Shown: one piece after another, positions 1,422 through 22,157 of the stretch
Position numbering within the stretch: position 1 is the first letter of the stretch
Layout of the letters: every line of letters starts with the position of its first letter
Source: a virus
Lineage: Duplodnaviria; Heunggongvirae; Uroviricota; Caudoviricetes
Direction: 5' to 3' (one strand)
Virus record (IMG/VR): IMGVR_UViG_2537561965_000009
Length of the DNA: 52,523 bases
Translations under genes and position numbers: made by a program
The notes under the pieces: generated by a model
The model's input: the letters and a program-made list of their open reading frames with translations, nothing else
The model's database searches: none
What the model was told of the DNA's origin: nothing

Positions 1422-3893
1422 TTAAAAATCAGCCTGATTCGGGATCAGTTTTTGCCAGATAACTGAAACGTATTTTGCCTGGTAACGGGCGTCATCAAGT
1501 GCATTATGGCGCTCACCTTCGAATGGAATAGCCGTTCTGGCATCGAAGTCTATGGCTTTCCCCAGCTCAACGATTGTGCGTACATCGCGATCGTTGTAGT
1601 AACGCCATGGGCAGGGGATCCCCTGCCGTTCGTATGAACGGCGCAAAATCGTGTTGTCGAAGTTGGCTCCATTTCCCCAGACCTGAACAAAAAATTCGCC
1701 GGAGTTTTCGTCGATAAATTCCCGCAATTGCAGCAGTGCATCATCTAACGGGATTTCATCGGTCAGAATGGCAGATTGCGCCTCCCGTGATTGCTTAAGC
1801 CACCATTTAATGGTGCCACGATCAATGACTCCGCCAGCAGTATCCATATCGATGGTCTTACTAAATTCCGGCCCCATATCTCCGGTTTGCGGATCGAAAA
1901 ATATTGCACCTATTGAGATAAGCGGGGCATCGGGATTTTTTCCCATGGTTTCAAGGTTGATCATCATGTGGTGCCACATTCTGCTGGTGGATGTGATAAC
2001 GTGATGACCGTTCATCGCAATTAAGGGATCTGCCGTCTCGCCAGTTTCACTATCGCTGGCGTGATCCTGAGCGCTACCAGCATTCTCCTTGTGTGGATGT
2101 TCAGCGCCTTCCATTTCCTTCGGATCATTTTCCTGAACTTCAACCTGATTCTCTTCATCGAATGTTTCCTGGTATGTTGCGTCGCCCATTACCGCGCCAC
2201 AATCAGGGCAGTTGCCACCACCGCTTTGACCGCAGGCGGTGCAGACTTTTTCCGGTTCCTGTTGCGCTACTGGCTCAGGTTGTTTCGTTTCTGGCTCGTT
2301 TTGTAACGCATTTGGGCTGTTTTGTTCCGCTTTCTGGCCGTTCTGTTCCGTTTCTTGTTGGTTCTGATTCACTGAATCGCGGGTTTCAATCCCCTTCACC
2401 CATTTCGGATCATTCGGGTCGCTAATCCCTGCAACAAATTCACCACGTGATACAGCAAGCAACTTATTGGCGTCAGGCTGGCTGATATTGGCTGCCTGCA
2501 TAATTTTGTTTACTTCGTCAGCGGTAACTTTTACCGGCTCTGGTTGTGCGATCGTGTCAGATGCACCAGTATTTTGTTGTGAACCTGAGTATGTACTGTT
2601 TTTGCGGGCGAAATATTCTTCTTTCGTGATTTCAGTAGCCCCGGCAGCCAGCGCCTTATCCAGACCAGAAAGTTTGTTTGCGCGACCGTATTTTTCGCCA
2701 TCCTTGTCGGTGAAGAGGAAGTAGAACGGCCCTTCACGCTCTACAGATGGTTCGACTTCCACTTTGCATTCGGTTTTTTCGTTGTCCGGAATTGCCGTTT
2801 CCACTGCATCAGTTTCTGGTACTGGCGACGAGAGAGTATCAGTTGCGCTCTGATTTCTTCCTTCATCTTCAAACACGCCCTTTGTAGTCAGGTATTCAGT
2901 AATGTATTTGTTCAGTGCCACAGGGTCTTTGTGAATGTCGATCGGACGTTCACGGACAAGGCCAAAAATAGTCTGGCGGTCGTAGCGAAGGGCATCAGGC
3001 TGTTTGCGCATTGATGCCGAGATACGCTTCCAGTCTTCGCGGTCGTTGTCGATAACTTCATTTTTTGCCCAGCGATGGATGCTGCCGTCAATGTTTCCGG
3101 CATCCACATCACCAGGCCAGAGAGCGTAGGCCAGTTCGTCATCCAGTGTTTTCCATGTCTGCTTGTATTCGCGATGAATGGCAGCAATGACCGGGCTGAT
3201 TTTTCCTGTTGAATTTTCACTGTGCTGTTGATTGGTTCTGGCGCGGGCGAGATCAACAACAGACGTGTATTTTCCGGTTTCCTTGCGTTCACCTTCGCGA
3301 CGTTTTTTCCAGATGCGCATCTCTGCCTGAATTTCGGGCCATTTGGCACCAGGCTTACATTTATGCTTAACCCACCCGATGGCATGCAGCTTAAGCTCCG
3401 GATACATGGCGTTAACTTCTGGCATTTTCATCAACGCTTCAACGATATGTCCGTCGAATGTTGCCATGTCTTCCTGCAACAATTCCTGTGCGCTAATAAC
3501 CATATCAACGGTGATGTTTTCACATGTGTCGAACTTAACCATGACAGCGTTCTGTACTTCAGGGGACAGCTTGTCAAAATTGACGTTCATCGGATCGGAT
3601 TCTGGTTCGACCGGAATAAAGGAAGCGGATTCCTCATCCCAGCGGTTTTCCTGCATATATTCAGCATCCCAGGAATCGAGGGCAGGGCGGGGTATACCGG
3701 GTTTATCCTCGCAGACAAGAAATTTATAAGCGCAGTCCTGAGCAGCCGGATAATGTTCCAGGAATTGCCAGTGAAATTTTGCGCGGGCGCGACGTTCATC
3801 ACCGGCTTCAATGGCAGTGGCTACAGCGACGGCACCTTCTTCCTTTATTGCCTGTTCGTCCGGAATGGCGGCGCAAATAAAGACTTTACTCAT
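1422..3893 (-). CDS. large prophage exonuclease (often annotated exodeoxyribonuclease VIII-like); C-terminal DnaQ-like 3'-5' exonuclease motifs
   Basis: 823-aa ORF, GAGG Shine-Dalgarno before ATG 3893; C-terminal domain has Exo II-like GNGANFDNTIL and Exo III-like HNALDDARYQA motifs; central Cys4 cluster CTACGQSGGGNCPDCG; acidic linker. Confidence 0.6.
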   Translation of the reverse strand: MSKVFICAAIPDEQAIKEEGAVAVATAIEAGDERRARAKFHWQFLEHYPAAQDCAYKFLVCEDKPGIPRPALDSWDAEYMQENRWDEESASFIPVEPESDPMNVNFDKLSPEVQNAVMVKFDTCENITVDMVISAQELLQEDMATFDGHIVEALMKMPEVNAMYPELKLHAIGWVKHKCKPGAKWPEIQAEMRIWKKRREGERKETGKYTSVVDLARARTNQQHSENSTGKISPVIAAIHREYKQTWKTLDDELAYALWPGDVDAGNIDGSIHRWAKNEVIDNDREDWKRISASMRKQPDALRYDRQTIFGLVRERPIDIHKDPVALNKYITEYLTTKGVFEDEGRNQSATDTLSSPVPETDAVETAIPDNEKTECKVEVEPSVEREGPFYFLFTDKDGEKYGRANKLSGLDKALAAGATEITKEEYFARKNSTYSGSQQNTGASDTIAQPEPVKVTADEVNKIMQAANISQPDANKLLAVSRGEFVAGISDPNDPKWVKGIETRDSVNQNQQETEQNGQKAEQNSPNALQNEPETKQPEPVAQQEPEKVCTACGQSGGGNCPDCGAVMGDATYQETFDEENQVEVQENDPKEMEGAEHPHKENAGSAQDHASDSETGETADPLIAMNGHHVITSTSRMWHHMMINLETMGKNPDAPLISIGAIFFDPQTGDMGPEFSKTIDMDTAGGVIDRGTIKWWLKQSREAQSAILTDEIPLDDALLQLREFIDENSGEFFVQVWGNGANFDNTILRRSYERQGIPCPWRYYNDRDVRTIVELGKAIDFDARTAIPFEGERHNALDDARYQAKYVSVIWQKLIPNQADF

Positions 3894-5688: not shown

Positions 5689-6366
5689 ATGTCCATCATT
5701 TTTAATGGACACTATCGTATGAAACACCGGACCTGGATCACTGAAGCTTTACGTCTTCACTTTGAAGAACATTTACCCCGGGTTGTGGCCGGGCGTCGCC
5801 TGGGTGTACCAAAATCAACAGTTTGTAGTATGTTCGTGCGCTTTCGGAGAGCTGGCCTTTCGTGGCCTTTGCCCGCAGGCATGTCGGAGCAGGAACTTGA
5901 TGCCTGCCTTTACGGACAATTTTCCACGGTACCAGTCGTACGTCCTGAAAGCACCGTTATATCCGAAGCCCCCGTGGTAAAAAAACGTCCCCGGCGGCCC
6001 AACTTCCCTTATGAGTTTAAAATCGCCTTAGTGGAGCAGTCACTGCAGCCCGGAGCCTGTGTGGCGCAGATCGCCCGGGAAAACGGAATCAACGATAACC
6101 TGCTCTTCAACTGGCGCCATCAATACCGGAAAGGTGGCCTGCTGCCTTCCGGAAAAAATATGCCGGCACTGCTTCCCGTGACGTTAACGCCGGAGCCGGA
6201 TAATAAAATCCCGGCCCCCGCACAGGAACCAGAGCAGATAAATACACCGTCCGACAGTCTGTGTTGTGAGCTGGTTCTGCCGGCCGGAACTCTCAGGCTT
6301 AAAGGTAAACTGACGCCGGCGTTATTACAGACACTTATCCGCGAAATAAAAGGGAGCAGCCACTGA
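5689..6366 (+). CDS. IS66-family accessory protein TnpA (HTH)
   Basis: 225-aa ORF with IS3/IS66 orfA-like HTH segment FKIALVEQSLQPGACVAQIARENGINDNLLFNWRHQYRKGG; stop overlaps start of tnpB. Confidence 0.7.
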   Translation: MSIIFNGHYRMKHRTWITEALRLHFEEHLPRVVAGRRLGVPKSTVCSMFVRFRRAGLSWPLPAGMSEQELDACLYGQFSTVPVVRPESTVISEAPVVKKRPRRPNFPYEFKIALVEQSLQPGACVAQIARENGINDNLLFNWRHQYRKGGLLPSGKNMPALLPVTLTPEPDNKIPAPAQEPEQINTPSDSLCCELVLPAGTLRLKGKLTPALLQTLIREIKGSSH

Positions 6367-6713
6367 TGATATCTCTCCCTGCAGGTTCGCGTATCTGGCT
6401 GGTTGCAGGTATCACCGATATGCGAAATGGCTTTAACGGCCTGGCATCAAAAGTTCAGAACGTCCTGAAGGATGACCCGTTCTCCGGACACCTGTTCATC
6501 TTCCGCGGACGCCGGGGTGACCAGATAAAAGTGTTGTGGGCTGACAGTGACGGACTGTGCCTCTTCACCAAACGCCTGGAGCGGGGCCGCTTCGTCTGGC
6601 CAGTCACCCGTGACGGCAAGGTGCACCTTACTCCGGCTCAGTTATCCATGCTTCTTGAAGGTATCAACTGGAAGCACCCGAAACGAACGGAACGCGCTGG
6701 AATCCGCATATAA
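6366..6713 (+). CDS. IS66-family TnpB
   Basis: 115-aa ORF MISLPAGSRIWLVAGITDMRNGFNGL... characteristic of IS66 orfB. Confidence 0.8.
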   Translation: MISLPAGSRIWLVAGITDMRNGFNGLASKVQNVLKDDPFSGHLFIFRGRRGDQIKVLWADSDGLCLFTKRLERGRFVWPVTRDGKVHLTPAQLSMLLEGINWKHPKRTERAGIRI

Positions 6714-6732
6714 CCCGTTGTAAAGTGAGGAT

Positions 6733-8304
6733 ATGGACACCTCACTTGCTCATGAGAACGCCCGCCTGCGGGCACTGTTGCAGACGCAACAGGACACCAT
6801 CCGCCAGATGGCCGAATATAACCGCCTGCTCTCACTGCGGGTGGCGGCTTATGCTTCCGAAATCAACCGGCTGAAGGCGCTGGTTGCGAAACTGCAACGT
6901 ATGCAGTTCGGTAAAAGCTCAGAAAAACTTCGTGCAAAAACCGAACGGCAGATACAGGAAGCACAGGAGCGAATCAGCGCACTTCAGGAAGAAATGGCGG
7001 AAACGCTGGGTGAGCAATATGACCCGGTACTGCCATCCGCCCTGCGCCAGTCTTCAGCCCGTAAACCGTTACCGGCCTCACTTCCCCGTGAAACCCGGGT
7101 TATCCGGCCGGAAGAGGAATGCTGTCCTGCCTGTGGTGGTGAACTCAGTTCTCTGGGATGTGATGTGTCAGAGCAACTGGAGCTTATCAGCAGCGCCTTT
7201 AAGGTTATCGAAACACAACGTCCGAAACAGGCCTGTTGCCGGTGCGACCATATCGTGCAGGCACCAGTACCTTCAAAACCCATTGCACGCAGTTATGCCG
7301 GAGCGGGGCTTCTGGCCCATGTTGTCACCGGGAAATATGCAGACCATCTGCCGTTATACCGCCAGTCAGAAATATACCGTCGTCAGGGAGTGGAGCTGAG
7401 CCGTGCCACACTGGGGCGCTGGACAGGTGCTGTTGCTGAACTGCTGGAGCCGCTGTATGACGTCCTGCGCCAGTATGTGCTGATGCCCGGTAAAGTCCAT
7501 GCTGATGATATCCCCGTCCCGGTCCAGGAGCCGGGCAGCGGTAAAACCCGGACAGCCCGGCTGTGGGTCTACGTCCGTGATGACCGTAACGCCGGTTCAC
7601 AGATGCCCCCGGCGGTCTGGTTCGCGTACAGTCCGGACCGGAAAGGTATCCATCCACAAAATCACCTGGCCGGTTACAGCGGTGTGCTTCAGGCCGATGC
7701 TTACGGTGGTTACCGGGCGTTATACGAATCCGGCAGAATAACGGAAGCCGCGTGTATGGCTCATGCCCGGAGAAAAATCCACGATGTGCATGCAAGAGCG
7801 CCCACCTACATCACCACGGAAGCCCTGCAGCGTATCGGTGAACTGTATGCCATCGAGGCAGAGGTCCGGGGCTGTTCAGCAGAACAGCGTCTGGCGGCAA
7901 GAAAAGCCAGAGCCGCGCCACTGATGCAGTCACTGTATGACTGGATACAGCAACAGATGAAAACACTGTCGCGTCACTCAGATACGGCAAAAGCGTTCGC
8001 ATACCTGCTGAAACAGTGGGATGCACTGAACGTGTACTGCAGTAATGGCTGGGTGGAAATCGACAACAACATCGCAGAGAACGCCTTACGGGGAGTGGCC
8101 GTAGGCCGGAAAAACTGGATGTTCGCGGGTTCCGACAGCGGTGGTGAACATGCGGCGGTGTTGTACTCGCTGATCGGCACATGCCGTCTGAACAATGTGG
8201 AGCCAGAAAAGTGGCTGCGTTACGTCATTGAACATATCCAGGACTGGCCGGCAAACCGGGTACGCGATCTGTTGCCCTGGAAAGTTGATCTGAGCTCTCA
8301 GTAA
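6733..8304 (+). CDS. IS66-family transposase TnpC
   Basis: 523-aa ORF with N-terminal coiled-coil and Cys-rich CPACG...CCRC region typical of IS66 transposases. Confidence 0.85.
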
Positions 8305-12935: not shown

Positions 12936-13000
12936 CCCCAGTTAACATTACGCGTCCTGCAAGACGCTTAACATTAATCTGAGGCCATATCTATGCTCTA
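12936..13000 (-). ncRNA. sok: candidate Sok antisense RNA
   Basis: Minus-strand promoter-like TTGCCT (rc of 13031-13036) and TAACCT (rc of 13007-13012) with 17-bp spacer, positioned like the sok promoter of hok/sok loci; extent is an estimate. Confidence 0.35.
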
Positions 13001-13205
13001 CACACGTAGGTTAGCCTCTTACGTGCCGAAAGGCAAGGAGAAGCAGGCTATGAAGCAGCAAAAGGCGATGCTAATCGCCCTGATCGTCATCTGTTTAACC
13101 GTCATAGTGACGGCACTGGTAACGAGGAAAGACCTCTGCGAGGTACGAATCCGAACCGGCCAGACGGAGGTCGCTGTCTTCACAGCTTACGAACCTGAGG
13201 AGTAA
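12993..13205 (+). CDS. mok: mok-like leader reading frame of the hok locus
   Basis: ORF starting upstream of hok and running to the same stop (here in frame with hok); the 5' leader matches the conserved hok mRNA pattern GCTTGAGGC...AGCCTCTTAC...AAGGAGAAG. Confidence 0.4.
   Translation: MLYTRRLASYVPKGKEKQAMKQQKAMLIALIVICLTVIVTALVTRKDLCEVRIRTGQTEVAVFTAYEPEE
13050..13205 (+). CDS. hok: Hok/Gef-family type I toxin
   Basis: 51-aa product MKQQKAMLIALIVICLTVIVTALVTRKDLCEVRIRTGQTEVAVFTAYEPEE has the Hok signature; AGGAG SD at 13036-13040. Confidence 0.85.
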   Translation: MKQQKAMLIALIVICLTVIVTALVTRKDLCEVRIRTGQTEVAVFTAYEPEE

Positions 13206-13645: not shown

Positions 13646-14704
13646 GTGCGGGTATTACTTCGATCTGTTCCGGTACCGGAACTTGGGCTGGTGGTCCTTA
13701 AGCCTGGTCGTGAATCCATGCAGGTATTCCGCAGCGGTCGTGTACTGGTGGAGCCGGAACCGAAAAGCATGCGCGGTCTGCCGTCCGGAGTCGTTCCTGC
13801 CGTTCGCCAGCCATTGGCGGAGGATAAATCACTACTGCCATTTTTCAGCGATGAGCGGGTGATTCGTGCTGCTGGCGGTGCTGGTGCGCTGTCTGACTGG
13901 CTGTTACGCCACGTTAAATCCTGCCAGTGGCCTCATGGTGACTATCATCACAGTGAAATCGTCATACATCGTTACGGTACCGGCGCGATGGTGTTGTGCT
14001 GGCACTGCGACAACCAGCTGCGTGACCAGACCTCCGAATCACTCGGGCAACTTGCTCATCAAAACCTGTCAGCATGGATGATTGACGTCATACGCCATGC
14101 AGTGAATGGCACGCAGGAGCGGGAATTATCGCTGGCTGAATTGTGCTGCTGGGCTTCTGTAAATGATGTAGTGGATGCCATGACCGAAAATATGGCGCGT
14201 CGAATCCTGAAGCTTCCGGGTGAAAAAATCCGCTCAGTATACCGCGAGAGCGACATCGTACCGGGAGAGCAGACCGCCATCAGCATACTGAAGCAGCGCA
14301 CAAAAAATATTGCGCCGTTGCCTCACGCCCACCAGCAACAGAATCCACCACAGGAAAAGACGGTGGTCAGCATTGCCGTTGATCCGGAGTCACCGGCTCA
14401 GTATCTCCAGCGCCAGAAACCACAACGGGAAGAGATGCCTGTATACACGCGCTGGGTAAAAACGCAGAAATGCATGACGTGTGGCAATCAGGCAGATGAT
14501 CCGCATCACATCATTGGTCATGGACTGGGAGGGATGGGAACAAAGGCTGATGATTTGTTTGTTATTCCGCTGTGCCGTAAATGCCATAGCGAACTACACG
14601 CCGGGGTAAAAGATTTTGAAGAAAAACACGGCAGCCAGCTGTTGTTGCTGATTCGTTTTTTAATGCACGCGAGAAATTCGGGTGTCCTGAAGTGGAAAGC
14701 ATGA
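13646..14704 (+). CDS. DUF968-like (YdfU-type) phage protein with C-terminal HNH-like Cys/His motif
   Basis: 352-aa ORF; C-terminal CMTCGNQADDPHHIIGHGLGG...CRKCHSELH resembles an HNH/zinc-finger nuclease motif; directly upstream of rusA. Confidence 0.5.
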   Translation: MRVLLRSVPVPELGLVVLKPGRESMQVFRSGRVLVEPEPKSMRGLPSGVVPAVRQPLAEDKSLLPFFSDERVIRAAGGAGALSDWLLRHVKSCQWPHGDYHHSEIVIHRYGTGAMVLCWHCDNQLRDQTSESLGQLAHQNLSAWMIDVIRHAVNGTQERELSLAELCCWASVNDVVDAMTENMARRILKLPGEKIRSVYRESDIVPGEQTAISILKQRTKNIAPLPHAHQQQNPPQEKTVVSIAVDPESPAQYLQRQKPQREEMPVYTRWVKTQKCMTCGNQADDPHHIIGHGLGGMGTKADDLFVIPLCRKCHSELHAGVKDFEEKHGSQLLLLIRFLMHARNSGVLKWKA

Positions 14705-15070
14705 ATGACTGAACGCATAGAATTTGTTTTGCCTTACCCGCCAACGGTGAACACTTACTGGCGACGTCGTGGCAGCACATATTTTGTATCAAAAGCCGGT
14801 GAGCGTTATCGCCGTGATGTGGCGCTTATTGTTCGCCAGCAGCGGCTGAAATTAAACCTGTCCGGAAGGCTGGCGATAAAGATTATTGCAGAGCCACCGG
14901 ATAAACGTCGTCGTGACCTGGACAATATCCTGAAAGCACCACTGGATGCGCTGACGCATGCCGGACTTCTCATAGACGACGAGCAGTTTGATGAAATCAA
15001 TATTGTGCGCGGTCAGCGCGTTCCTGGGGGGCGGCTGGGCGTGAAGATTTACAAAATTGAGAGTGAGTGA
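14705..15070 (+). CDS. rusA: Holliday junction resolvase RusA
   Basis: 121-aa ORF MTERIEFVLPYPPTVNTYWRRRG... with the RusA signature; overlaps the upstream stop. Confidence 0.85.
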   Translation: MTERIEFVLPYPPTVNTYWRRRGSTYFVSKAGERYRRDVALIVRQQRLKLNLSGRLAIKIIAEPPDKRRRDLDNILKAPLDALTHAGLLIDDEQFDEINIVRGQRVPGGRLGVKIYKIESE

Positions 15071-15624
15071 TCGTAAATATGATATATCCGGAAATTACAG
15101 GCAAAAGCGGCGAGCATTTACGTCTAAAAACGCTGGAAGCCGTCTGGATCCAGGGGAAATTACGGATGTGGGGGCGTTGGTCGTACATAGGTGGTGGCAA
15201 ACCAGGAAATATGTTCAATCAGTTGCTGGCATCCAAAACACTTACAAAAACTGCGATCAATGAAGCTCTGCGCAGAATAAAAAAATCAGGGATTGATAAA
15301 ACTGAGCTGGAAGCGTTTTTGCGTGAGATGATCAACAGCAAGCAAAAGAGCGGGCTGGCTTATTGTACTGATGCCGAGGCGTTATGTATCGATCGGGTAA
15401 TTAGTAAAGTGTTGGCAGAGCATCCGGGATTGATTTGTATCCTCCGACAAAGATATGAAGGGCTGGGAATGAGCAAGCTGAAAATGGCAGAACAGTTAAA
15501 AAAGAATCACCCTGACTGGAGCCTGAAAACTTGTAGAAATCGCATTGATGTTTGGTTGGCGATGGCTGAAACCATGCTTTTCCTTCCAATGTGCGTGGCA
15601 CTTCGGTGCTTTTCTGATAACTGA
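15067..15624 (+). CDS. late-gene antiterminator Q-like protein
   Basis: 185-aa ORF (GTG 15067 or ATG 15079) directly after rusA and before the late/lysis region; contains an RMWGRWS motif reminiscent of Q-type antiterminators; the call is mainly positional. Confidence 0.5.
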   Translation: MIVNMIYPEITGKSGEHLRLKTLEAVWIQGKLRMWGRWSYIGGGKPGNMFNQLLASKTLTKTAINEALRRIKKSGIDKTELEAFLREMINSKQKSGLAYCTDAEALCIDRVISKVLAEHPGLICILRQRYEGLGMSKLKMAEQLKKNHPDWSLKTCRNRIDVWLAMAETMLFLPMCVALRCFSDN

Positions 15625-15713
15625 TGATAGAAGTGCATCAGCTATCAATCTTGTTGACGTTCATCAAGGTCTGGACAATACTTACGTTAAGTTCCAACAT
15701 ATGGAAGATAAGA

Positions 15714-16904
15714 ATGATATTTACACGATTGAGATTTATCAATTTGTACGCTTTTGAGGATGCAGAGCTTAACCTGTCCTATCCAAGGAAACCTGTAAAC
15801 ATGCCTCTTGATGGGGAGTTTTTGGCTGGACGGCCTAAATTTTACTATAAAAAAGTCTGTATCATAACGGGGGGAAATGCTTCAGGCAAGACGTCACTAG
15901 GGCGAATTCTTTGTGGAATTCAGGTGTTTCTAAGAACCAAAGAGTTGCGGAGTAATCTGCGAGTGAATAATAAAAATAATGATGCTTCGTTTGAAGTAGA
16001 CTTTGCTACGGAGGAACATTTTCATCATCGTTTGTATGTACGCTTTGCTACCAGTGAAGGCGGAGCGCACATAATCAAAGAAATTAAATATGGTTTTGTT
16101 CAAATAGCATTAAATGATTCTTGCTATAAAACCACAGAAAAACTGAATCAACTCTTTTCTGGAAGGGCCCCAGGAGATACAGAATATTTTTTTCAGGAAC
16201 TAGCTACTGATAGCGAACCAGTTGTATTGGAGTTTTTCAAGCAACTTAAGTTTTTTGGTGGATGGTACTATTTGTTGTCTGAAACTAAAGAAAGTACCAC
16301 TGCAATTTCAGGAATGAATAAAAATATTCTTGAAAGGATAATTCGCACTTTCGATTCAAGTATTATAGGAGTTACCGAGATGCTGGAGTCTGAAAGTGAC
16401 GGGGATGAAAATAAATCATCTGCGGTTTATCTGATTAAATTTAAAAACTCTGATTCTCTTGTCGTTACCAGTAAAGGTGAAATAATTAACTCAGACCGTC
16501 TTTCTCGAGGAACATACGAGGCAGTGACGGTAGCGCATTTTATAAGCGCTATTATCTCTGATTGTGAAAGACTAGGTAAGCAATCTCTAATACCATCAAT
16601 GACTTATTTTCTTGACGAGAAATTGGCTTATACACATTCAGAGTTAGAGCGTATGATTGTGGCGCTGATTATATCTAATTTGAAAGAAAATACTCAGTTT
16701 TTCTATACAACGCATAACATGGATATTTTTGAGTTGGATCTGCCTGTTCACTCGTTCATTTTTATTAAAAAAACGAAAGACTATTCGGAGTTTGTTGAAG
16801 CAAATTCAGTTGTTAAAAAAAATGACCGTAGCATGCGAAACGCTGTTGAGAGAGATGTCTTTGGTGTCTTACCTGACACATCATTAGTATCGGAGCTACT
16901 CTGA
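15714..16904 (+). CDS. ABC-type (AAA_21/SMC-like) ATPase, first gene of a candidate two-gene defence module
   Basis: 396 aa from ATG 15714; N-terminus MIFTRLRFINLYAFEDAELNL; Walker A ITGGNASGKTS; signature-like LSRGTYEAV; Walker B YFLDE; H-loop-like TTHN; strongly AT-rich codon usage unlike flanking phage genes; stop overlaps next start (TGATG). Confidence 0.7.
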   Translation: MIFTRLRFINLYAFEDAELNLSYPRKPVNMPLDGEFLAGRPKFYYKKVCIITGGNASGKTSLGRILCGIQVFLRTKELRSNLRVNNKNNDASFEVDFATEEHFHHRLYVRFATSEGGAHIIKEIKYGFVQIALNDSCYKTTEKLNQLFSGRAPGDTEYFFQELATDSEPVVLEFFKQLKFFGGWYYLLSETKESTTAISGMNKNILERIIRTFDSSIIGVTEMLESESDGDENKSSAVYLIKFKNSDSLVVTSKGEIINSDRLSRGTYEAVTVAHFISAIISDCERLGKQSLIPSMTYFLDEKLAYTHSELERMIVALIISNLKENTQFFYTTHNMDIFELDLPVHSFIFIKKTKDYSEFVEANSVVKKNDRSMRNAVERDVFGVLPDTSLVSELL

Positions 16905-17437
16905 TGGCGGGGTTGTCTAAAATAAGAATAATTTTTGTCGAAGGTGAAACAGAAAACTCTCTTTTTCAGAAGATGAAACAACAGAGAGTTATTGATGCCA
17001 AATCAATTGTAAAAAGAAACTTTTGGCAAGAGAGCATAAGAAATTATGCGATTACTATTCCGAAGGGAAGTGATATACTAATTGTCTTTGATAGTGATGA
17101 AGTGGAGCAATCTGCAAGATTCATTGAAAATGTAAAGTTCCTTAAAAACAGAGGGCATAAAGTTTATCTTTTGCAGCAGAAAAGAAATTTTGAGGAGGAG
17201 TTGGCCTGGTGTTGCGGAATTCCTGTAAAAAAACTAATTGCTGGGTTCTGTGCAAAAAAAACATCGGGTATAAATGATTTCAAGAGAGATTTTATTGCTT
17301 GTAACAATCAACTTTCAAAGTTACTGAAAATGGGCATGCAGGAAACTAAGTGGTTTACAAGAGATTTACATACTGTATTGGAGCCTGTTGCAAGTTTTAA
17401 GTCATCTTTTTCTAAACATTTCAGGTTAACAAGATGA
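16904..17437 (+). CDS. small TOPRIM-like protein (RloB/OLD/DUF4435-like), second gene of the candidate module
   Basis: 177-aa ORF; N-terminal IRIIFVEGETE and downstream ILIVFDSDEV give the Glu ... DxD arrangement of TOPRIM-type nuclease domains; translationally coupled to the ATPase gene. Confidence 0.6.
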   Translation: MAGLSKIRIIFVEGETENSLFQKMKQQRVIDAKSIVKRNFWQESIRNYAITIPKGSDILIVFDSDEVEQSARFIENVKFLKNRGHKVYLLQQKRNFEEELAWCCGIPVKKLIAGFCAKKTSGINDFKRDFIACNNQLSKLLKMGMQETKWFTRDLHTVLEPVASFKSSFSKHFRLTR

Positions 17438-17572
17438 TTTATTTTCTTTTTTGTTCAGTTGATTGTTTTTGTTTGTAAAATGTCTTGATTTTTTGCCAAT
17501 AAACTGTTTCAATCCAGCTACGCTTCGCAAAGCTATACCGCGAGGCGAATAGCAGACATGGACACCTGAAAG

Positions 17573-17597
17573 AACCCGCTTTATGCGGGTTTTTTTA
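17573..17597 (+). terminator. rho-independent terminator after the ATPase/TOPRIM operon
   Basis: AACCCGC-TTTAT-GCGGGTT hairpin followed by TTTTTT. Confidence 0.7.
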
Positions 17598-17719
17598 TGC
17601 CTGAAAAACGGCACAGAACATTAAACGCGCTGGTAGTTGTGAATACTGGTCTTTCAGCTTGCTGGCTTTTTCGACAAGAGGTATTGGTATGTCACGTTAA
17701 CCGGAAAAGGGAAAAAGGC

Positions 17720-17917
17720 ATGCTAAAACAGCAGGATATGACCGAAACCGCCAGAGTGGTGTTTAATGAATTAAGCGTCACCGAACCGGCGACCGTCGGG
17801 GAAATTGCGCAGAATACTTACCTTTCACGCGAACGCTGCCAGTTAATACTGACTCAGCTTGTTATGGCGGGTCTGGCAGATTATCAGTTCGGTTGTTACA
17901 GACGCCTTCCGCAGTGA
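17720..17917 (+). CDS. small hypothetical protein (possible HTH)
   Basis: 65-aa ORF MLKQQDMTETARVVFNELSVTEPATVGEIAQNTYLSRERCQLILTQLVMAGLADY... upstream of the methyltransferase. Confidence 0.4.
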   Translation: MLKQQDMTETARVVFNELSVTEPATVGEIAQNTYLSRERCQLILTQLVMAGLADYQFGCYRRLPQ

Positions 17918-18067
17918 AGGCTTTTTAATTTGTGGTAATGGGCGGCTGGTGGGTGTTAGCGGCACCTGCCAGCCATCTGCTCATGCGTTGGGGTCACAAG
18001 CAAACCTCAGGCCCATCTGCTTTGCGCAAAAGCGGTATGAGCCTATCAGAGAAGTGCTTATTGATCT

Positions 18068-19117
18068 ATGGCTAATACTGTAAAAATATCCAGTTGTGAG
18101 TTAATCAACGCTGATTGCCTGGAATTTATCCAGACCTTACCGGAAAACTCTGTCGATCTTATAGTCACAGACCCGCCATACTTTAAAGTGAAACCCGAGG
18201 GCTGGGATAACCAGTGGAAGGGCGACGATGATTACCTGAAGTGGCTGGACCAGTGTCTGGCGCAGTTCTGGCGGGTGCTGAAACCTGTCGGAAGTCTTTA
18301 CCTGTTCTGTGGTCATCGCCTGGCATCTGATATCGAAATCATGATGCGTGAACGCTTCAGTGTGCTGAACCATATTATCTGGGCGAAGCCGTCCGGACGC
18401 TGGAACGGATGCAACAAGGAAAGCCTGCGGGCGTATTTCCCCGCCACAGAGCGCATTCTGTTCGCGGAACATTATCAGGGGCCGTATCGTCCGAAAGATG
18501 CCGGGTATGCGGCGAAGGGCAGTGCACTGAAACAGCATGTGATGGCCCCGCTGATTTCTTACTTTCGTGATGCGCGCGCGGCCCTGGGGATAACGGCAAA
18601 ACAGATTGCAGATGCCACAGGAAAGAAAAACATGGTGTCGCACTGGTTCAGTGCCAGTCAGTGGCAGCTACCGAACGAAAGCGATTATCTGAAATTACAG
18701 TCGCTGTTTGCCCGGGTGGCAGAAGAGAAACATCAGCGCGGTGAACTGGAAAAGCCCCACCACCAGCTGGTGGATACGTATACGTCACTGAACCGGCAGT
18801 ATGTGGAGCTGCAGAGTGAATATAAGCATCTGCGGCGGTATTTTGGTGTGACGGCGCAGGTGCCGTACACGGATGTGTGGACACATAAACCGGTGCAGTT
18901 CTATCCCGGGAAACATCCGTGCGAAAAACCGGCAGAAATGCTGCAGCAGATAATCAGCGCAAGCAGTCGTCCGGGAGACCTGGTTGCAGATTTTTTTATG
19001 GGCTCAGGTTCAACGGTAAAAGCTGCACTGGCGCTCGGGCGTCGTGCGATTGGCGTTGAACTGGAGACCGGACGTTTTGAGCAGACAGTCAGGGAAGTTC
19101 AGGATTTAATCGTTTGA
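18068..19117 (+). CDS. DNA methyltransferase (N6-adenine/N4-cytosine, beta class), apparently orphan
   Basis: 349-aa ORF with motif IV DPPY near the N-terminus and motif I FFMGSGST near the C-terminus; no adjacent restriction endonuclease gene seen. Confidence 0.8.
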   Translation: MANTVKISSCELINADCLEFIQTLPENSVDLIVTDPPYFKVKPEGWDNQWKGDDDYLKWLDQCLAQFWRVLKPVGSLYLFCGHRLASDIEIMMRERFSVLNHIIWAKPSGRWNGCNKESLRAYFPATERILFAEHYQGPYRPKDAGYAAKGSALKQHVMAPLISYFRDARAALGITAKQIADATGKKNMVSHWFSASQWQLPNESDYLKLQSLFARVAEEKHQRGELEKPHHQLVDTYTSLNRQYVELQSEYKHLRRYFGVTAQVPYTDVWTHKPVQFYPGKHPCEKPAEMLQQIISASSRPGDLVADFFMGSGSTVKAALALGRRAIGVELETGRFEQTVREVQDLIV

Positions 19118-19166
19118 AACGGATGAGATTGCAGAATTAATTACGCACCATTATTATTCTGCTCCC

Positions 19167-19242
19167 GGCCCTTTAGCTCAGTGGTGAGAGCGAGCGACTC
19201 ATAATCGCCAGGTCGCTGGTTCAAATCCAGCAAGGGCCACCA
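19167..19242 (+). tRNA. ileZ: tRNA with CAU anticodon, ileX-like (tRNA-Ile2)
   Basis: 76-nt cloverleaf GGCCCTT...AAGGGCCACCA with anticodon loop CUCAUAA; closely resembles E. coli ileX as recalled; same position as ileZ in Stx-type phages. Confidence 0.8.
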
Positions 19243-19249
19243 TCACATA

Positions 19250-19326
19250 CCGCCATTAGCTCATCAGGAAAGAGCGCCAGCCTTCGAAGCTGGTTGCGCG
19301 GGGTTCAAGTCCCCGATGGCGGTCCA
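19250..19326 (+). tRNA. argN: tRNA-Arg (anticodon UCG)
   Basis: 77-nt cloverleaf with acceptor CCGCCAT/ATGGCGG, anticodon loop CUUCGAA, T-arm CGGGGTTCAAGTCCCCG and encoded CCA. Confidence 0.75.
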
Positions 19327-19339
19327 TTATCTGCATCAT

Positions 19340-19416
19340 GCGTTGTTAGCTCAGCCGGACAGAGCAATTGCCTTCTAAGCAATCGGTCACTGGTTCGAAT
19401 CCAGTACAACGCGCCA
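19340..19416 (+). tRNA. argO: tRNA-Arg (anticodon UCU)
   Basis: 77-nt cloverleaf GCGTTGT...ACAACGCGCCA with anticodon loop CUUCUAA. Confidence 0.8.
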
Positions 19417-19707
19417 CACTTATTTTCCCTGGCTCGCTTTTGTGGGCCTTTTTTTTAAATGTCTCACAATTTAGGCGGTTGACTGTTGTCTGGTTTGCGG
19501 GGAGTTTGTTAAAAGAAACTGGCATGGTGAATCCCCCTGTGCGGAGGGGCAATCAGCGAGTAGGTATATGGGATAATCGCGGATTCAGGTGCTGGTACTG
19601 AATTCACCGGGAGGCACCCGGCACCATGCAATGGCACATAGCGCCACTCTCCAGCCCCTCTCCGGAGGGGCTGTTTATATTGATTTTGTCAGATGTGAGT
19701 AAACTGC

Positions 19708-20043
19708 TTATGGACTTTGTTGTTTTAGCCCATAAGGACATATTTGCAGAGTGCAACGGTTATTAAAGCATTCATTCAATACGTTATCTGTATTTGTAGG
19801 GCATTCCTGGCTGTTTTTGATTAAATTCCAGAATGTTTTATTGAATGGTACTACGTTGTAAATGGTTACAGGTAGCACTTTGTTATTGAGCATGATGCCT
19901 GTGTGAGTCAGTGTAAATATACTTTCAGGAGGTAAGAAAGCATCCGATTGATACCAGATTATTAATTTTATTTTACTCCATATGACTGAAAAAGATATTC
20001 CGCATGATGGCTGGATAACTGTATCAATCACAATCCACTTCAT
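19708..20043 (-). CDS. orphan hypothetical protein at the stx-equivalent position
   Basis: 111-aa ORF in a very AT-rich segment between the tRNA genes and the esterase gene, opposite in orientation to the late operon; AAGGA-like SD; no family recognised. Confidence 0.35.
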
Positions 20044-20303
20044 TTAGTTTCCTTGTTTATGCCTTGCTGGTGATGTTCTGAAAAGTATAAATGATATTTT
20101 TGATTGTAAACCATAGAGCAGAATTATTTTTCTGATGTTGTTTATTGTTTATTTAAATGCAGGGTGGTTTATATCTCGTCTTGTAGTTTATCCATGCATA
20201 TCTGCTTGATGATGAGGTTTTTATTTAAGGTATGGTTTTGTGTTTTTTCTGTATTACATGTCAGGTATTTTAAAGAATCATTTTTCAGATGGTGGAAAGA
20301 ACC

Positions 20304-22157
20304 ATGGCATTTAAACACTATGATGTTGTCAGGGCGGCGTCGCCGTCAGATCTTGCGGAAAAGCTGACACATAAACTGAAAGAGGGCTGGCAGCCGTTTG
20401 GTAGTCCGGTGGCCATAACCCCTTATACCCTGATGCAGGCGATTGCAGCAGAAGGTGATGTGGTCGTCAGTGGTGCAACTGAGCCGGAGTGGTACTACGT
20501 CATCGTACTGGCCGGGCAATCCAATGCCATGGCTTACGGTGAAGGGCTTCCGCTTCCGGATTCTTACGATGCGCCCCACCCACGCATTAAGCAACTGGCC
20601 CGTCGCAACACAGTGACTCCCGGTGGTAAAGCATGCGCATTTAACGACATCATTCCGGCAGACCACTGCCTGCATGATGTTCAGGATATGAGCGCACTGA
20701 ATCATCCGAAGGCAGACCTGAGCAAAGGGCAGTACGGCTGTGTCGGCCAGGGCTTACATATTGCCAAAAAACTGCTTCCGTATATCCCGAATAACGCGGG
20801 GATCCTGCTGGTACCATGCTGTCGTGGTGGTTCGGCATTCACCCAGGGCGCGGAGGGGACATTCAGTGCGGACACGGGGGCCAGCCAGGATTCGGCACGC
20901 TGGGGTGTGGGTAAACCGTTATATCAGGACCTGATCGCACGCACCAAAGCGGCATTACAGAAGAACCCGAAAAATGTGTTGCTGGCGGTGTGCTGGATGC
21001 AGGGCGAATTTGACATGAGCGCTGCCACCTACGCACAGCAACCGGACCTGTTCACGGCCATGCTGAAGCAGTTCCGTACTGACCTTTCCGGATTTAACGC
21101 GCAGTGCCATGGCGGCAGTGCTGCAGTTGTACCGTGGATTTGTGGCGACACGACGTATTACTGGAAAAACACATACGGCACACAGTATGACTCCGTCTAC
21201 GGCGCATACAAAAACAGGGAGAGCGACAACGTTTTCTTTGTGCCGTTCATGACCGACGGTAACGGCAACAACACGCCCACCAACTTACCGGCAGAAGACC
21301 CGGATATTGCTGATGCAGGTTATTACGGCGCGCAATCCCGTAGTAATGGTAATTGGGTATCGTCAAACCGCCCGACACATTTCAGTTCATGGGCGCGCAG
21401 GAGCATTATTCCGGATCGTATGGCAACCGCTATTCTGAACGCAGCCGGGCGCACCTCAGCCTTCATCAGTGGTAAGGCACCGGAAATCAAACCCTCGCCC
21501 GGCGTCGACACGCCATCGGGGCCGTCTGAAGATGCATCCGTACGCACAATCTCCCTGTTGCCGACAGCCGGAGAGGCTGCTGCGCAGGGCTGGACCATTA
21601 AGGACGGCGGAATTCAGTTGTCGGGTGGTGTATTTAAGATCACCAAGCAGAGCAATAAAACTTGGTCCCTGATGCATCCGGTGGATGACGCAGTCTCCCT
21701 GCTGACACGGGGTGGCAGACTGAGCTGTAAGTTTCGACTGTCAGGCGCACTGACCAACAACCAGTTCGGTCTGGGAATTTATCTGTATACCGATGTAGCG
21801 TTACCTGACGTCGTGGCGATGACCGGGACTGGTAACCCGTTCCTGATGTCGTTCTTCACCCAGACCACAGACGGCAAACTGAATCTGATGCATCACAGGA
21901 AAGCAGGAAACACAAAGTTGGGCGAGTTCGGGAATTACAGTAACGACTGGCAGACGCTGGAGCTGGTGTTCACCGCCGGCAGTGCCACGGTTACTCCGAA
22001 ACTGAATGGAGTGGCTGGCCCGGCATTCCAGGTCATAAAAGACAGTCTGACACTGGGGCTGAATGCGCTGACGCTGACGGATATTACCAAAAATGCAGCG
22101 TATGGCGTTGAGATAGAAAGTCTGGTGCTGGAGATAAATGCACCAGCATCATCATAA
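20304..22157 (+). CDS. prophage sialate O-acetylesterase (NanS-p-like; DUF1737 N-terminus plus SGNH/SASA esterase domain)
   Basis: 617 aa from ATG 20304 (alternative ATG 20289); N-terminal MAFKHYDVVRAASPSDLAEKL...; esterase motif VLAGQSNAMAYGEG; C-terminal beta-rich probable carbohydrate-binding region; same position as nanS-p downstream of stx in Stx phages. Confidence 0.75.
   Translation: MAFKHYDVVRAASPSDLAEKLTHKLKEGWQPFGSPVAITPYTLMQAIAAEGDVVVSGATEPEWYYVIVLAGQSNAMAYGEGLPLPDSYDAPHPRIKQLARRNTVTPGGKACAFNDIIPADHCLHDVQDMSALNHPKADLSKGQYGCVGQGLHIAKKLLPYIPNNAGILLVPCCRGGSAFTQGAEGTFSADTGASQDSARWGVGKPLYQDLIARTKAALQKNPKNVLLAVCWMQGEFDMSAATYAQQPDLFTAMLKQFRTDLSGFNAQCHGGSAAVVPWICGDTTYYWKNTYGTQYDSVYGAYKNRESDNVFFVPFMTDGNGNNTPTNLPAEDPDIADAGYYGAQSRSNGNWVSSNRPTHFSSWARRSIIPDRMATAILNAAGRTSAFISGKAPEIKPSPGVDTPSGPSEDASVRTISLLPTAGEAAAQGWTIKDGGIQLSGGVFKITKQSNKTWSLMHPVDDAVSLLTRGGRLSCKFRLSGALTNNQFGLGIYLYTDVALPDVVAMTGTGNPFLMSFFTQTTDGKLNLMHHRKAGNTKLGEFGNYSNDWQTLELVFTAGSATVTPKLNGVAGPAFQVIKDSLTLGLNALTLTDITKNAAYGVEIESLVLEINAPASS

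Follow-up and report, generated by a model that had tools for sequence, protein, structure and literature searches.

The window analysed here, the whole stretch of 52,523 nucleotides, is a lambdoid prophage of the phiP27/Stx-phage kind in which a Q-like antiterminator gene is followed, across a short gap, by the gene for an ATPase. The first intergenic DNA after Q is the usual place of the late promoter PR' in lambdoid phages, and the preliminary description read the gap in that way, as the site of PR' and of the Q-utilisation site (qut). The question that the locus raises is whether the gap is part of the late switch of the prophage or belongs to the genes that follow it.

Gene order around the gap

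The genes that frame the gap and situate it within the prophage are given below by position in the window.

13646-14704, DUF968 gene
14705-15070, RusA gene
15079..15624, plus strand, Q-like antiterminator gene encoding 181 aa (Pfam DUF1133 at 1.9e-98, with a weak match at 8.5e-8 to PF06530, the Q21/933W family)
15597..15610, plus strand, hairpin GGCAC-UUCG-GUGCU followed by UUUCUGAU, within the last Q codons, found by the terminator scan
15714..16904, plus strand, gene for an ABC/AAA_15-type ATPase of 396 aa, AbiLi-like (PADLOC, Pfam, Walker A)
16904..17437, plus strand, gene for a small partner protein of 177 aa, probably TOPRIM-like (AbiLii/RloB-like)
17720..19416, plus strand, start of the late region, common to phiP27-like and Stx phages
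17720-17917, plus strand, small winged-helix ORF within that region
18068-19117, plus strand, DNA methylase gene
19167-19416, plus strand, three tRNA genes
20289-22157, nanS-p-like esterase gene

A gap at 15625-15713 separates the stop codon of Q (15622-15624) from the ATG of the ATPase gene (15714), so that the gap reported in the preliminary description does exist, although it measures 89 bp and not 90. The same gene ends are annotated by RefSeq in an identical prophage. E. coli B7A, EC24 and CB209 are examples of lysogens of this prophage. A longer ATPase ORF of 426 aa, which starts at the in-frame ATG 15624 and would close the gap, was rejected, as the homologues have 394-400 aa and the RefSeq start is 15714. 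This upstream ATG overlaps the Q stop codon (TGATG) and is the start used by some gene callers (P0001, 69 member sequences).

Proteins of the DUF1133 family have been named Q antiterminators in 13 Stx phages on the basis of HHpred (PMC8136144). A sequence search of the window Q protein against the PDB returned no match. Near the C-terminus of the protein, the R of a P-M-R motif, kept in all compared relatives, is replaced by C, and because of this replacement the window allele is treated here as only a putative antiterminator. To our knowledge, no Q protein of the DUF1133 family, nor the qut site on which it would act, has been characterised experimentally.

The hairpin in the last Q codons has a predicted folding energy of -6.1 kcal/mol (z = -1.1), and 30 of 200 shuffled sequences fold equally well. 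It is probably a weak, non-functional terminator-like site.

Further features were recorded elsewhere in the prophage. An IS66-family element occupies 5689-8304 in the early-left region; its 523-aa transposase is confirmed by Pfam, and the two ORFs upstream of the transposase gene are assumed to be accessory genes. The type I toxin gene hokD lies at 12993-13205, about 2 kb upstream of Q (RefSeq annotation of the identical prophage), and Rfam matches to the sok antitoxin RNA were obtained in three of the related loci searched. A strong match to the STnc100 (PasD-like) sRNA, at 132 bits, and an ORF annotated by RefSeq in the identical prophage as the anti-adapter IraM were recorded at 19493-19682 and 19708-20043 (minus strand). 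Together, the sRNA match and the ORF take the place that stx has in Stx phages, downstream of the three tRNA genes.

Promoter-like hexamers and leader of the ATPase gene

Within the gap, the following elements precede the ATPase gene, which together with its partner gene is referred to below as the cassette.

15654..15659, plus strand, -35 hexamer TTGACG of the candidate cassette promoter
15677..15682, plus strand, -10 hexamer AATACT of the same candidate promoter, after a 17-nt spacer
15692..15706, plus strand, inverted repeat TTCCAA-N4-TGGAA, ending 7 nt before the ATPase ATG

Both hexamers singled out in the preliminary description are thus present with a 17-nt spacer, TTGACG being at 15654-15659 and not at 15652-15657 as given there. 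The alternative -10 that it offered, GACAAT (15674-15679), does not stand, since the spacer would be only 14 nt long and unusable. From TTGACG/AATACT, transcription of the cassette would be expected to start near 15689-15690.

The site at 15654 scores 9/12 against the consensus. Sites of this score number 10 in 7 kb, compared with 10.1 expected from shuffled sequences, and roughly 0.04-0.06 such matches are expected in the gap on one strand. As a simple consensus scan finds such sites at chance frequency, the match at 15654 is not beyond chance on the window alone. With a position-weight score built from textbook hexamer frequencies, the same promoter is among the nine best sites on both strands of the whole 52.5-kb window. 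The chance frequency in the consensus scan, together with the lack of a strong terminator in the interval from Q to the ATPase gene, would suit a reading in which the hexamers are a fortuitous match and the pair depends entirely on read-through from the early operon after induction, remaining silent in lysogens. Close relatives of the ATPase (58-89% identity) provide, with the window, eight contexts, the seven others being as follows.

L088, adjoining what remains of a DUF1133 Q gene, within a chromosomal island
L093, 3' of another DUF1133 Q gene
L089/L090 and L095/L096, 3' of unrelated PF03589 Q genes (Citrobacter koseri, metagenomic phage)
L094, adjoining a prophage integrase gene in E. coli, the integrase gene being on the opposite strand
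L091, adjoining the gene for a 2788-aa polyvalent protein
L177, in the Erwinia chromosome, standing alone with a dehydrogenase gene and a chemoreceptor gene as its neighbours, each on the opposite strand

In all eight contexts, TTGAC[GC]-17 nt-[AG]ATA[CA]T is found at a constant distance from the ATG. The two hexamers have mean pairwise identities of 0.96 (-35) and 0.89 (-10), whereas the spacer reaches 0.43 and the 20 nt upstream 0.31, and the homology shared across contexts extends from the -35 hexamer to the stop codon of the partner gene. The hexamers and their 17-nt spacing are thus kept while the spacer and the upstream DNA diverge, and at the Erwinia and integrase sites the flanking genes on the opposite strand leave no upstream operon that could act as driver. 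Promoter-like hexamers are also seen by inspection at the equivalent place in distant ATPase homologues; a scan of genome contigs, which yielded 14 loci, supplied distant leaders and no further Q contexts. We therefore consider it unlikely that the hexamers are fortuitous and the pair silent in lysogens. The footprint in the eight contexts argues for TTGACG/AATACT being a genuine sigma-70-type promoter that belongs to the cassette, in agreement with the promoter-like character attributed to these hexamers from the start.

The best consensus match of the region (10/12) is on the minus strand, where TTGATA-17-TATCAT at 15742-15714 sits in the first ATPase codons, oriented back over the cassette promoter. 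This match may have arisen merely as a consequence of the protein-coding sequence.

The inverted repeat in the leader overlaps the likely ribosome-binding site of the ATPase gene. With at most one mismatch, TTCCAA-N4-TGGAA recurs in 17 of the 20 distinct homologue loci, including some with protein identity as low as ~30-40%, with a chance occurrence in 0.9% of random 45-mers; the loci range from Enterobacteriaceae to Neisseriaceae-like bacteria and marine Gammaproteobacteria. As an RNA hairpin the element is weak (-3.6 kcal/mol, z = -0.6), and no covariation was found across the homologue loci. It is possibly an operator or a sequence-specific translational element. No leader of this type is reported for AbiL or PARIS in the accessible part of PMC13064643. 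In locus L004, an IS1 element with InsA domains recognised by Pfam extends from position 3122 onward, which corresponds to 15699/15700 of the window and falls within the TTCCA/TGGAA element. The IS1 separates the cassette promoter from the ATPase start, and its insertion may inactivate the cassette.

The Q-linked block downstream of the ATPase pair

Downstream of the partner gene, the window contains the end of the inserted segment and a compact block that precedes the late region.

17438..17476, plus strand, AT-rich tail of the inserted segment, without terminator, the right junction being 17476/17477
17477..17488, plus strand, AAAATGTCTTGA, a 12-nt 3' remnant (K-M-S-stop) of another Q allele
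17485..17513, plus strand, candidate PR', with -35 TTGATT (17485-17490) and a 17-nt spacer containing ATAAACTG, conserved in relatives
17505-17513, plus strand, candidate extended -10 of PR', TG-T-TTCAAT, with a putative hexamer assignment
17519..17548, plus strand, conserved start of the predicted short transcript, with the -10-like TACGCT (17519-17524)
17573..17597, plus strand, strong intrinsic terminator tR', AACCCGC-TTTAT-GCGGGTT followed by T7, from its fold energy

Relatives of Q were compared in 80 viral contigs and several phage records, which gave 82 usable loci. Their block consists of TTGnnn, 17 nt, TGnTTCAAT, TA[CAT]GCT, GCTTCGCAAAGCT..CGCGAGGCGAA and a strong terminator. TTGnnn, at a fixed distance of 17 nt from TTCAAT, either overlaps the Q stop codon or comes immediately after it, and the combination TTGnnn-17-TGnTTCAAT with TA[CAT]GCT is kept across Q sub-families. 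The sequence AAACTGYTTCAAT lies 6-101 nt 3' of the Q stop in 75 of the 82 DUF1133-Q loci; a distance of +1884 is confined to the five loci that are identical to the window. In E. coli O157:H7 the block begins 6 nt after the DUF1133 gene, and diverged Klebsiella phages display an identical block architecture. Stx2_EH1910, which has a different Q type (quuQ), is unrelated to the window until the 3' half of the terminator, at 17585, from where the two are nearly identical. This pattern suggests that the block at 17485-17597 is specific to the type of Q, as would be expected of a Q-specific cis-acting qut unit.

The terminator that closes the block folds at -18.2 kcal/mol (z = -7.3), and its strength bears out the preliminary description, in which it was supposed to be the first strong terminator. 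The RNA of ~75-81 nt predicted for the block folds at -30.9 kcal/mol (z = -5.5). In characterised phages, PR' is constitutive and in lysogens its transcription terminates at tR', giving a short RNA such as lambda 6S, StxS or IsrK (PMC7547250, PMC4825925). Phage 21 has its Q-binding element inside the promoter itself, and a -10-like pause element among the first bases to be transcribed (PMC6606751, 10.1101/651190). Like the 6S, StxS and IsrK units, the block combines a candidate promoter, a -10-like sequence near +1, a short leader and a strong terminator, in a sequence unrelated to that of StxS. It also resembles lambdoid PR'-qut-tR' units in being Q-type-specific and, in the relatives, directly 3' of Q; unlike them, the block of the window is 1.9 kb away from Q.

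The short PR' transcript would have its +1 near 17520. TACGCT (17519-17524) may serve as a sigma-dependent pause element; within 17519-17548, GCTTCGCAAAGCT..CGCGAGGCGAA is a candidate for qut or for a 5' hairpin. The exact assignment of promoter, pause and Q-binding element (QBE) inside the block is tentative. The proposed PR' -10, TTCAAT, is without the usual A at -11, depends on the extended TG and ranks only ~128th in the window by position weight. Two other hexamers, TAAACT (17500-17505) and TACGCT itself, were rejected as the PR' -10, as neither has a usable -35 or a TG at the right distance, and TACGCT is therefore kept as a candidate pause element.

The anatomy of the block, with its 5' hairpin and terminator, is also that of an sRNA. 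Its non-canonical -10 hexamer and its sub-threshold Rfam matches to several sRNA families, including isrK, would likewise fit a reading in which 17485-17597 is an independent sRNA gene or a mere terminator and the actual late promoter is to be sought elsewhere, for instance closer to the lysis genes. The isrK match reaches 21.6 bits for a cutoff of 50 and is one among many such matches, which lie far below the gathering scores and are apparently driven by the terminator; the isrK match was rejected as evidence on these grounds, being also absent in a 50-kb search of relatives. Moreover, lambda 6S, StxS and IsrK are themselves products of an antitermination-controlled late promoter (PMC7547250, PMC4825925), so that an sRNA and a PR' are not exclusive readings of the block. 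An independent gene would also leave unaccounted for a block that is Q-type-specific, ends exactly at the terminator and abuts or overlaps the Q stop codon in most relatives, and we find it quite unlikely that the late promoter lies elsewhere.

A connection of the PR' transcript with PasA or PasC was also rejected. The PasA sRNA of EPEC runs antisense to the genes on either side of it, and the block does not contain the PasA probe sequence, the sequence comparison covering the PasA probe and no PasC sequence. PasD/STnc100 corresponds to 19493-19682 of the window and not to the block.

The position and Q specificity of the block bear directly on the proposal that the gap itself holds PR' and qut. 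According to this proposal, TTGACG/AATACT is PR', and the ATPase pair lies inside a short constitutive transcript that runs to 17573-17597. The hexamers do lie in the first intergenic DNA after Q and are a good sigma-70 match, and no strong terminator is found ahead of 17573. However, the sequence is absent 3' of Q in 75 of the 82 relatives and accompanies the cassette instead, non-phage sites included, whereas the block that is Q-adjacent in relatives and Q-type-specific is intact at 17485-17597. The same promoter also follows PF03589 Q genes, and since these are unrelated to the DUF1133 Q, the two could not share a Q-binding element. In addition, TACGTT, which follows the -10 in the window, shows no conservation in the other contexts, so that the site is without a conserved -10-like pause element, and the first strong terminator is ~1.9 kb away. 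A PR' at 15654 is therefore very improbable.

With the late block downstream of the pair and the promoter travelling with the cassette, the pair falls between Q and PR', outside the short PR' transcript to which it had been assigned. The analogy drawn there with Stx phages is imprecise as well: stx lies downstream of tR' and needs antitermination by Q (PMC7547250), in contrast to the cassette, which is upstream of PR'.

The cassette as cargo of the prophage

The ATPase matches AbiLi in PADLOC at 4.3e-25 and AriA more weakly, at 1e-7, while its Pfam matches to AAA_15 and SMC_N fall below the curated cutoffs. Its Walker A stretch (G53, N55-T60) is invariant, and a protein search returned 212 homologues. 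The ATG of the partner gene overlaps the ATPase stop codon. The partner protein carries E-G and DxD motifs and has weak matches to AbiLii, RloB and OLD-TOPRIM; none of the profile matches of this 177-aa protein is significant, and a fold search returned only generic alpha/beta folds, among which TOPRIM was not singled out. From its motifs, a TOPRIM-like nuclease is plausible. AbiL, PARIS and RloAB form a class of systems that combine an ABC ATPase with a TOPRIM/OLD nuclease, as described in PMC13064643. Like these systems, the cassette consists of two overlapping genes, with an ATPase that matches AbiLi and a partner with E-G and DxD; unlike them, it has a partner of only 177 aa without a significant profile match. 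From these resemblances we infer an AbiL-like anti-phage unit made of an ABC ATPase and a small partner.

Comparison with cassette-less loci delimits the inserted segment. The 12-nt remnant AAAATGTCTTGA is identical to the end of Q in loci of the L035/L042 type and marks the right-hand recombination joint of the cassette. From this joint, window positions 17477-17875 are 98.5% identical to the cassette-less relative L042. On the left side, DNA homology to L042 stops inside Q, near 15570, and the last ~50 nt of the window Q gene align as an allele other than that of the cassette-less relatives. Inspection shows homology between this tail (PMCVALRCFSDN) and the Q remnant that adjoins the cassette in the chromosomal island of L088. 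The GC content of the cassette is 0.32-0.39, compared with 0.47-0.55 for the flanks. Of 5426 complete E. coli genomes, seven have the cassette, always at the Q-PR' junction, and 631 have the PR' block.

The same placement is observed with a second Q family. In PF03589-Q phages, a promoter, TTGACTTTGCATAAAA(C/T)TGTCCTGTATGCT, and a terminator are found 41-44 nt after Q in 69 of the 70 loci with a locatable Q stop. In the cassette-bearing L089, the TTGACTTTGCATAAAA promoter lies 1842 nt after Q; in L095 it is likewise downstream of the cassette, and in L093 inspection reveals a PR'-like TTGCAA-17-TTTAAT 3' of the cassette. Judged by these displaced promoters, phages with Q genes of two unrelated families have the cassette after Q and ahead of the late promoter. 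The sequence TTGACTTTGCATAAAA(C/T)TGTCCTGTATGCT, found at L089 4734, at L095 4749 and in L097-L176, is a candidate for the PR' of PF03589 (lambda-type) Q phages.

Morons of lambdoid prophages are autonomous cargo transcription units, exemplified by bor, lom and the toxin genes located between Q and the lysis genes. The cassette resembles them in being polymorphic for presence and absence, in its atypical GC content, in its putative sigma-70 promoter and in what would be a cargo useful to the lysogen; unlike them, it has no terminator of its own. On the plus strand, the terminator scan detected no terminator-like site between 15611 and 17572, a negative result to be read with care, as the scan also missed the strong terminator at 17573-17597, we think by over-extending the stem into the T tract. 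In the window, L089 and L095, where the cassette is Q-linked and the downstream phage DNA is kept, the next terminator after the cassette is tR'. The cassette is apparently a moron that has its own promoter and borrows tR' (17573-17597) as its terminator.

Taken together, the comparisons make it likely in our judgement that 15625-15713 is the private sigma-70 promoter and leader of an acquired AbiL-like cassette, and that the PR'/qut/tR' unit of the prophage is 17485-17597. A horizontally acquired, low-GC cassette of two genes would have settled between Q and the late-control unit. Its promoter, TTGACG-17 nt-AATACT, would initiate transcription near 15689 and produce a leader of ~25 nt that includes TTCCAA-N4-TGGAA. 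In the lysogen, the ATPase pair would be transcribed from this promoter, independently of Q; upon induction, it would probably also be read through from the early operon encoding Q, since only the weak hairpin at 15597-15610 intervenes. As the cassette is without a terminator of its own, the transcripts of the pair would stop at tR'. In lysogens, the PR' in 17485-17597 would produce a transcript of ~75 nt, and this unit would be the site of Q action. Expression of the pair in uninduced lysogens, in transcripts ending at 17573-17597, is most likely on this basis.

A more speculative proposal, which we regard as rather doubtful, is that the Q-PR' junction is a selected docking site for the cassette and that TTCCAA-N4-TGGAA is an autoregulatory operator or translational switch common to the ATPase family. 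If the junction were such a docking site, tR' would insulate the lysis genes from constitutive transcription of the cassette, and at induction the defence genes would gain additional expression from transcripts running on from the Q operon.

Although no new kind of system is described here, the preferred assignment, with a cassette promoter in the gap and the late switch PR'/qut/tR' at 17485-17597, would correct the transcription map of the prophage. The ATPase pair would be independent cargo, probably expressed in lysogens and outside the Q-controlled late transcript. The analysis also provides a defined candidate promoter for an uncharacterised AbiL-like defence pair. The repeated placement of the cassette between Q and PR' bears on whether Q needs to be encoded beside its site of action, and the family-wide 15-bp leader element may control potentially toxic genes.
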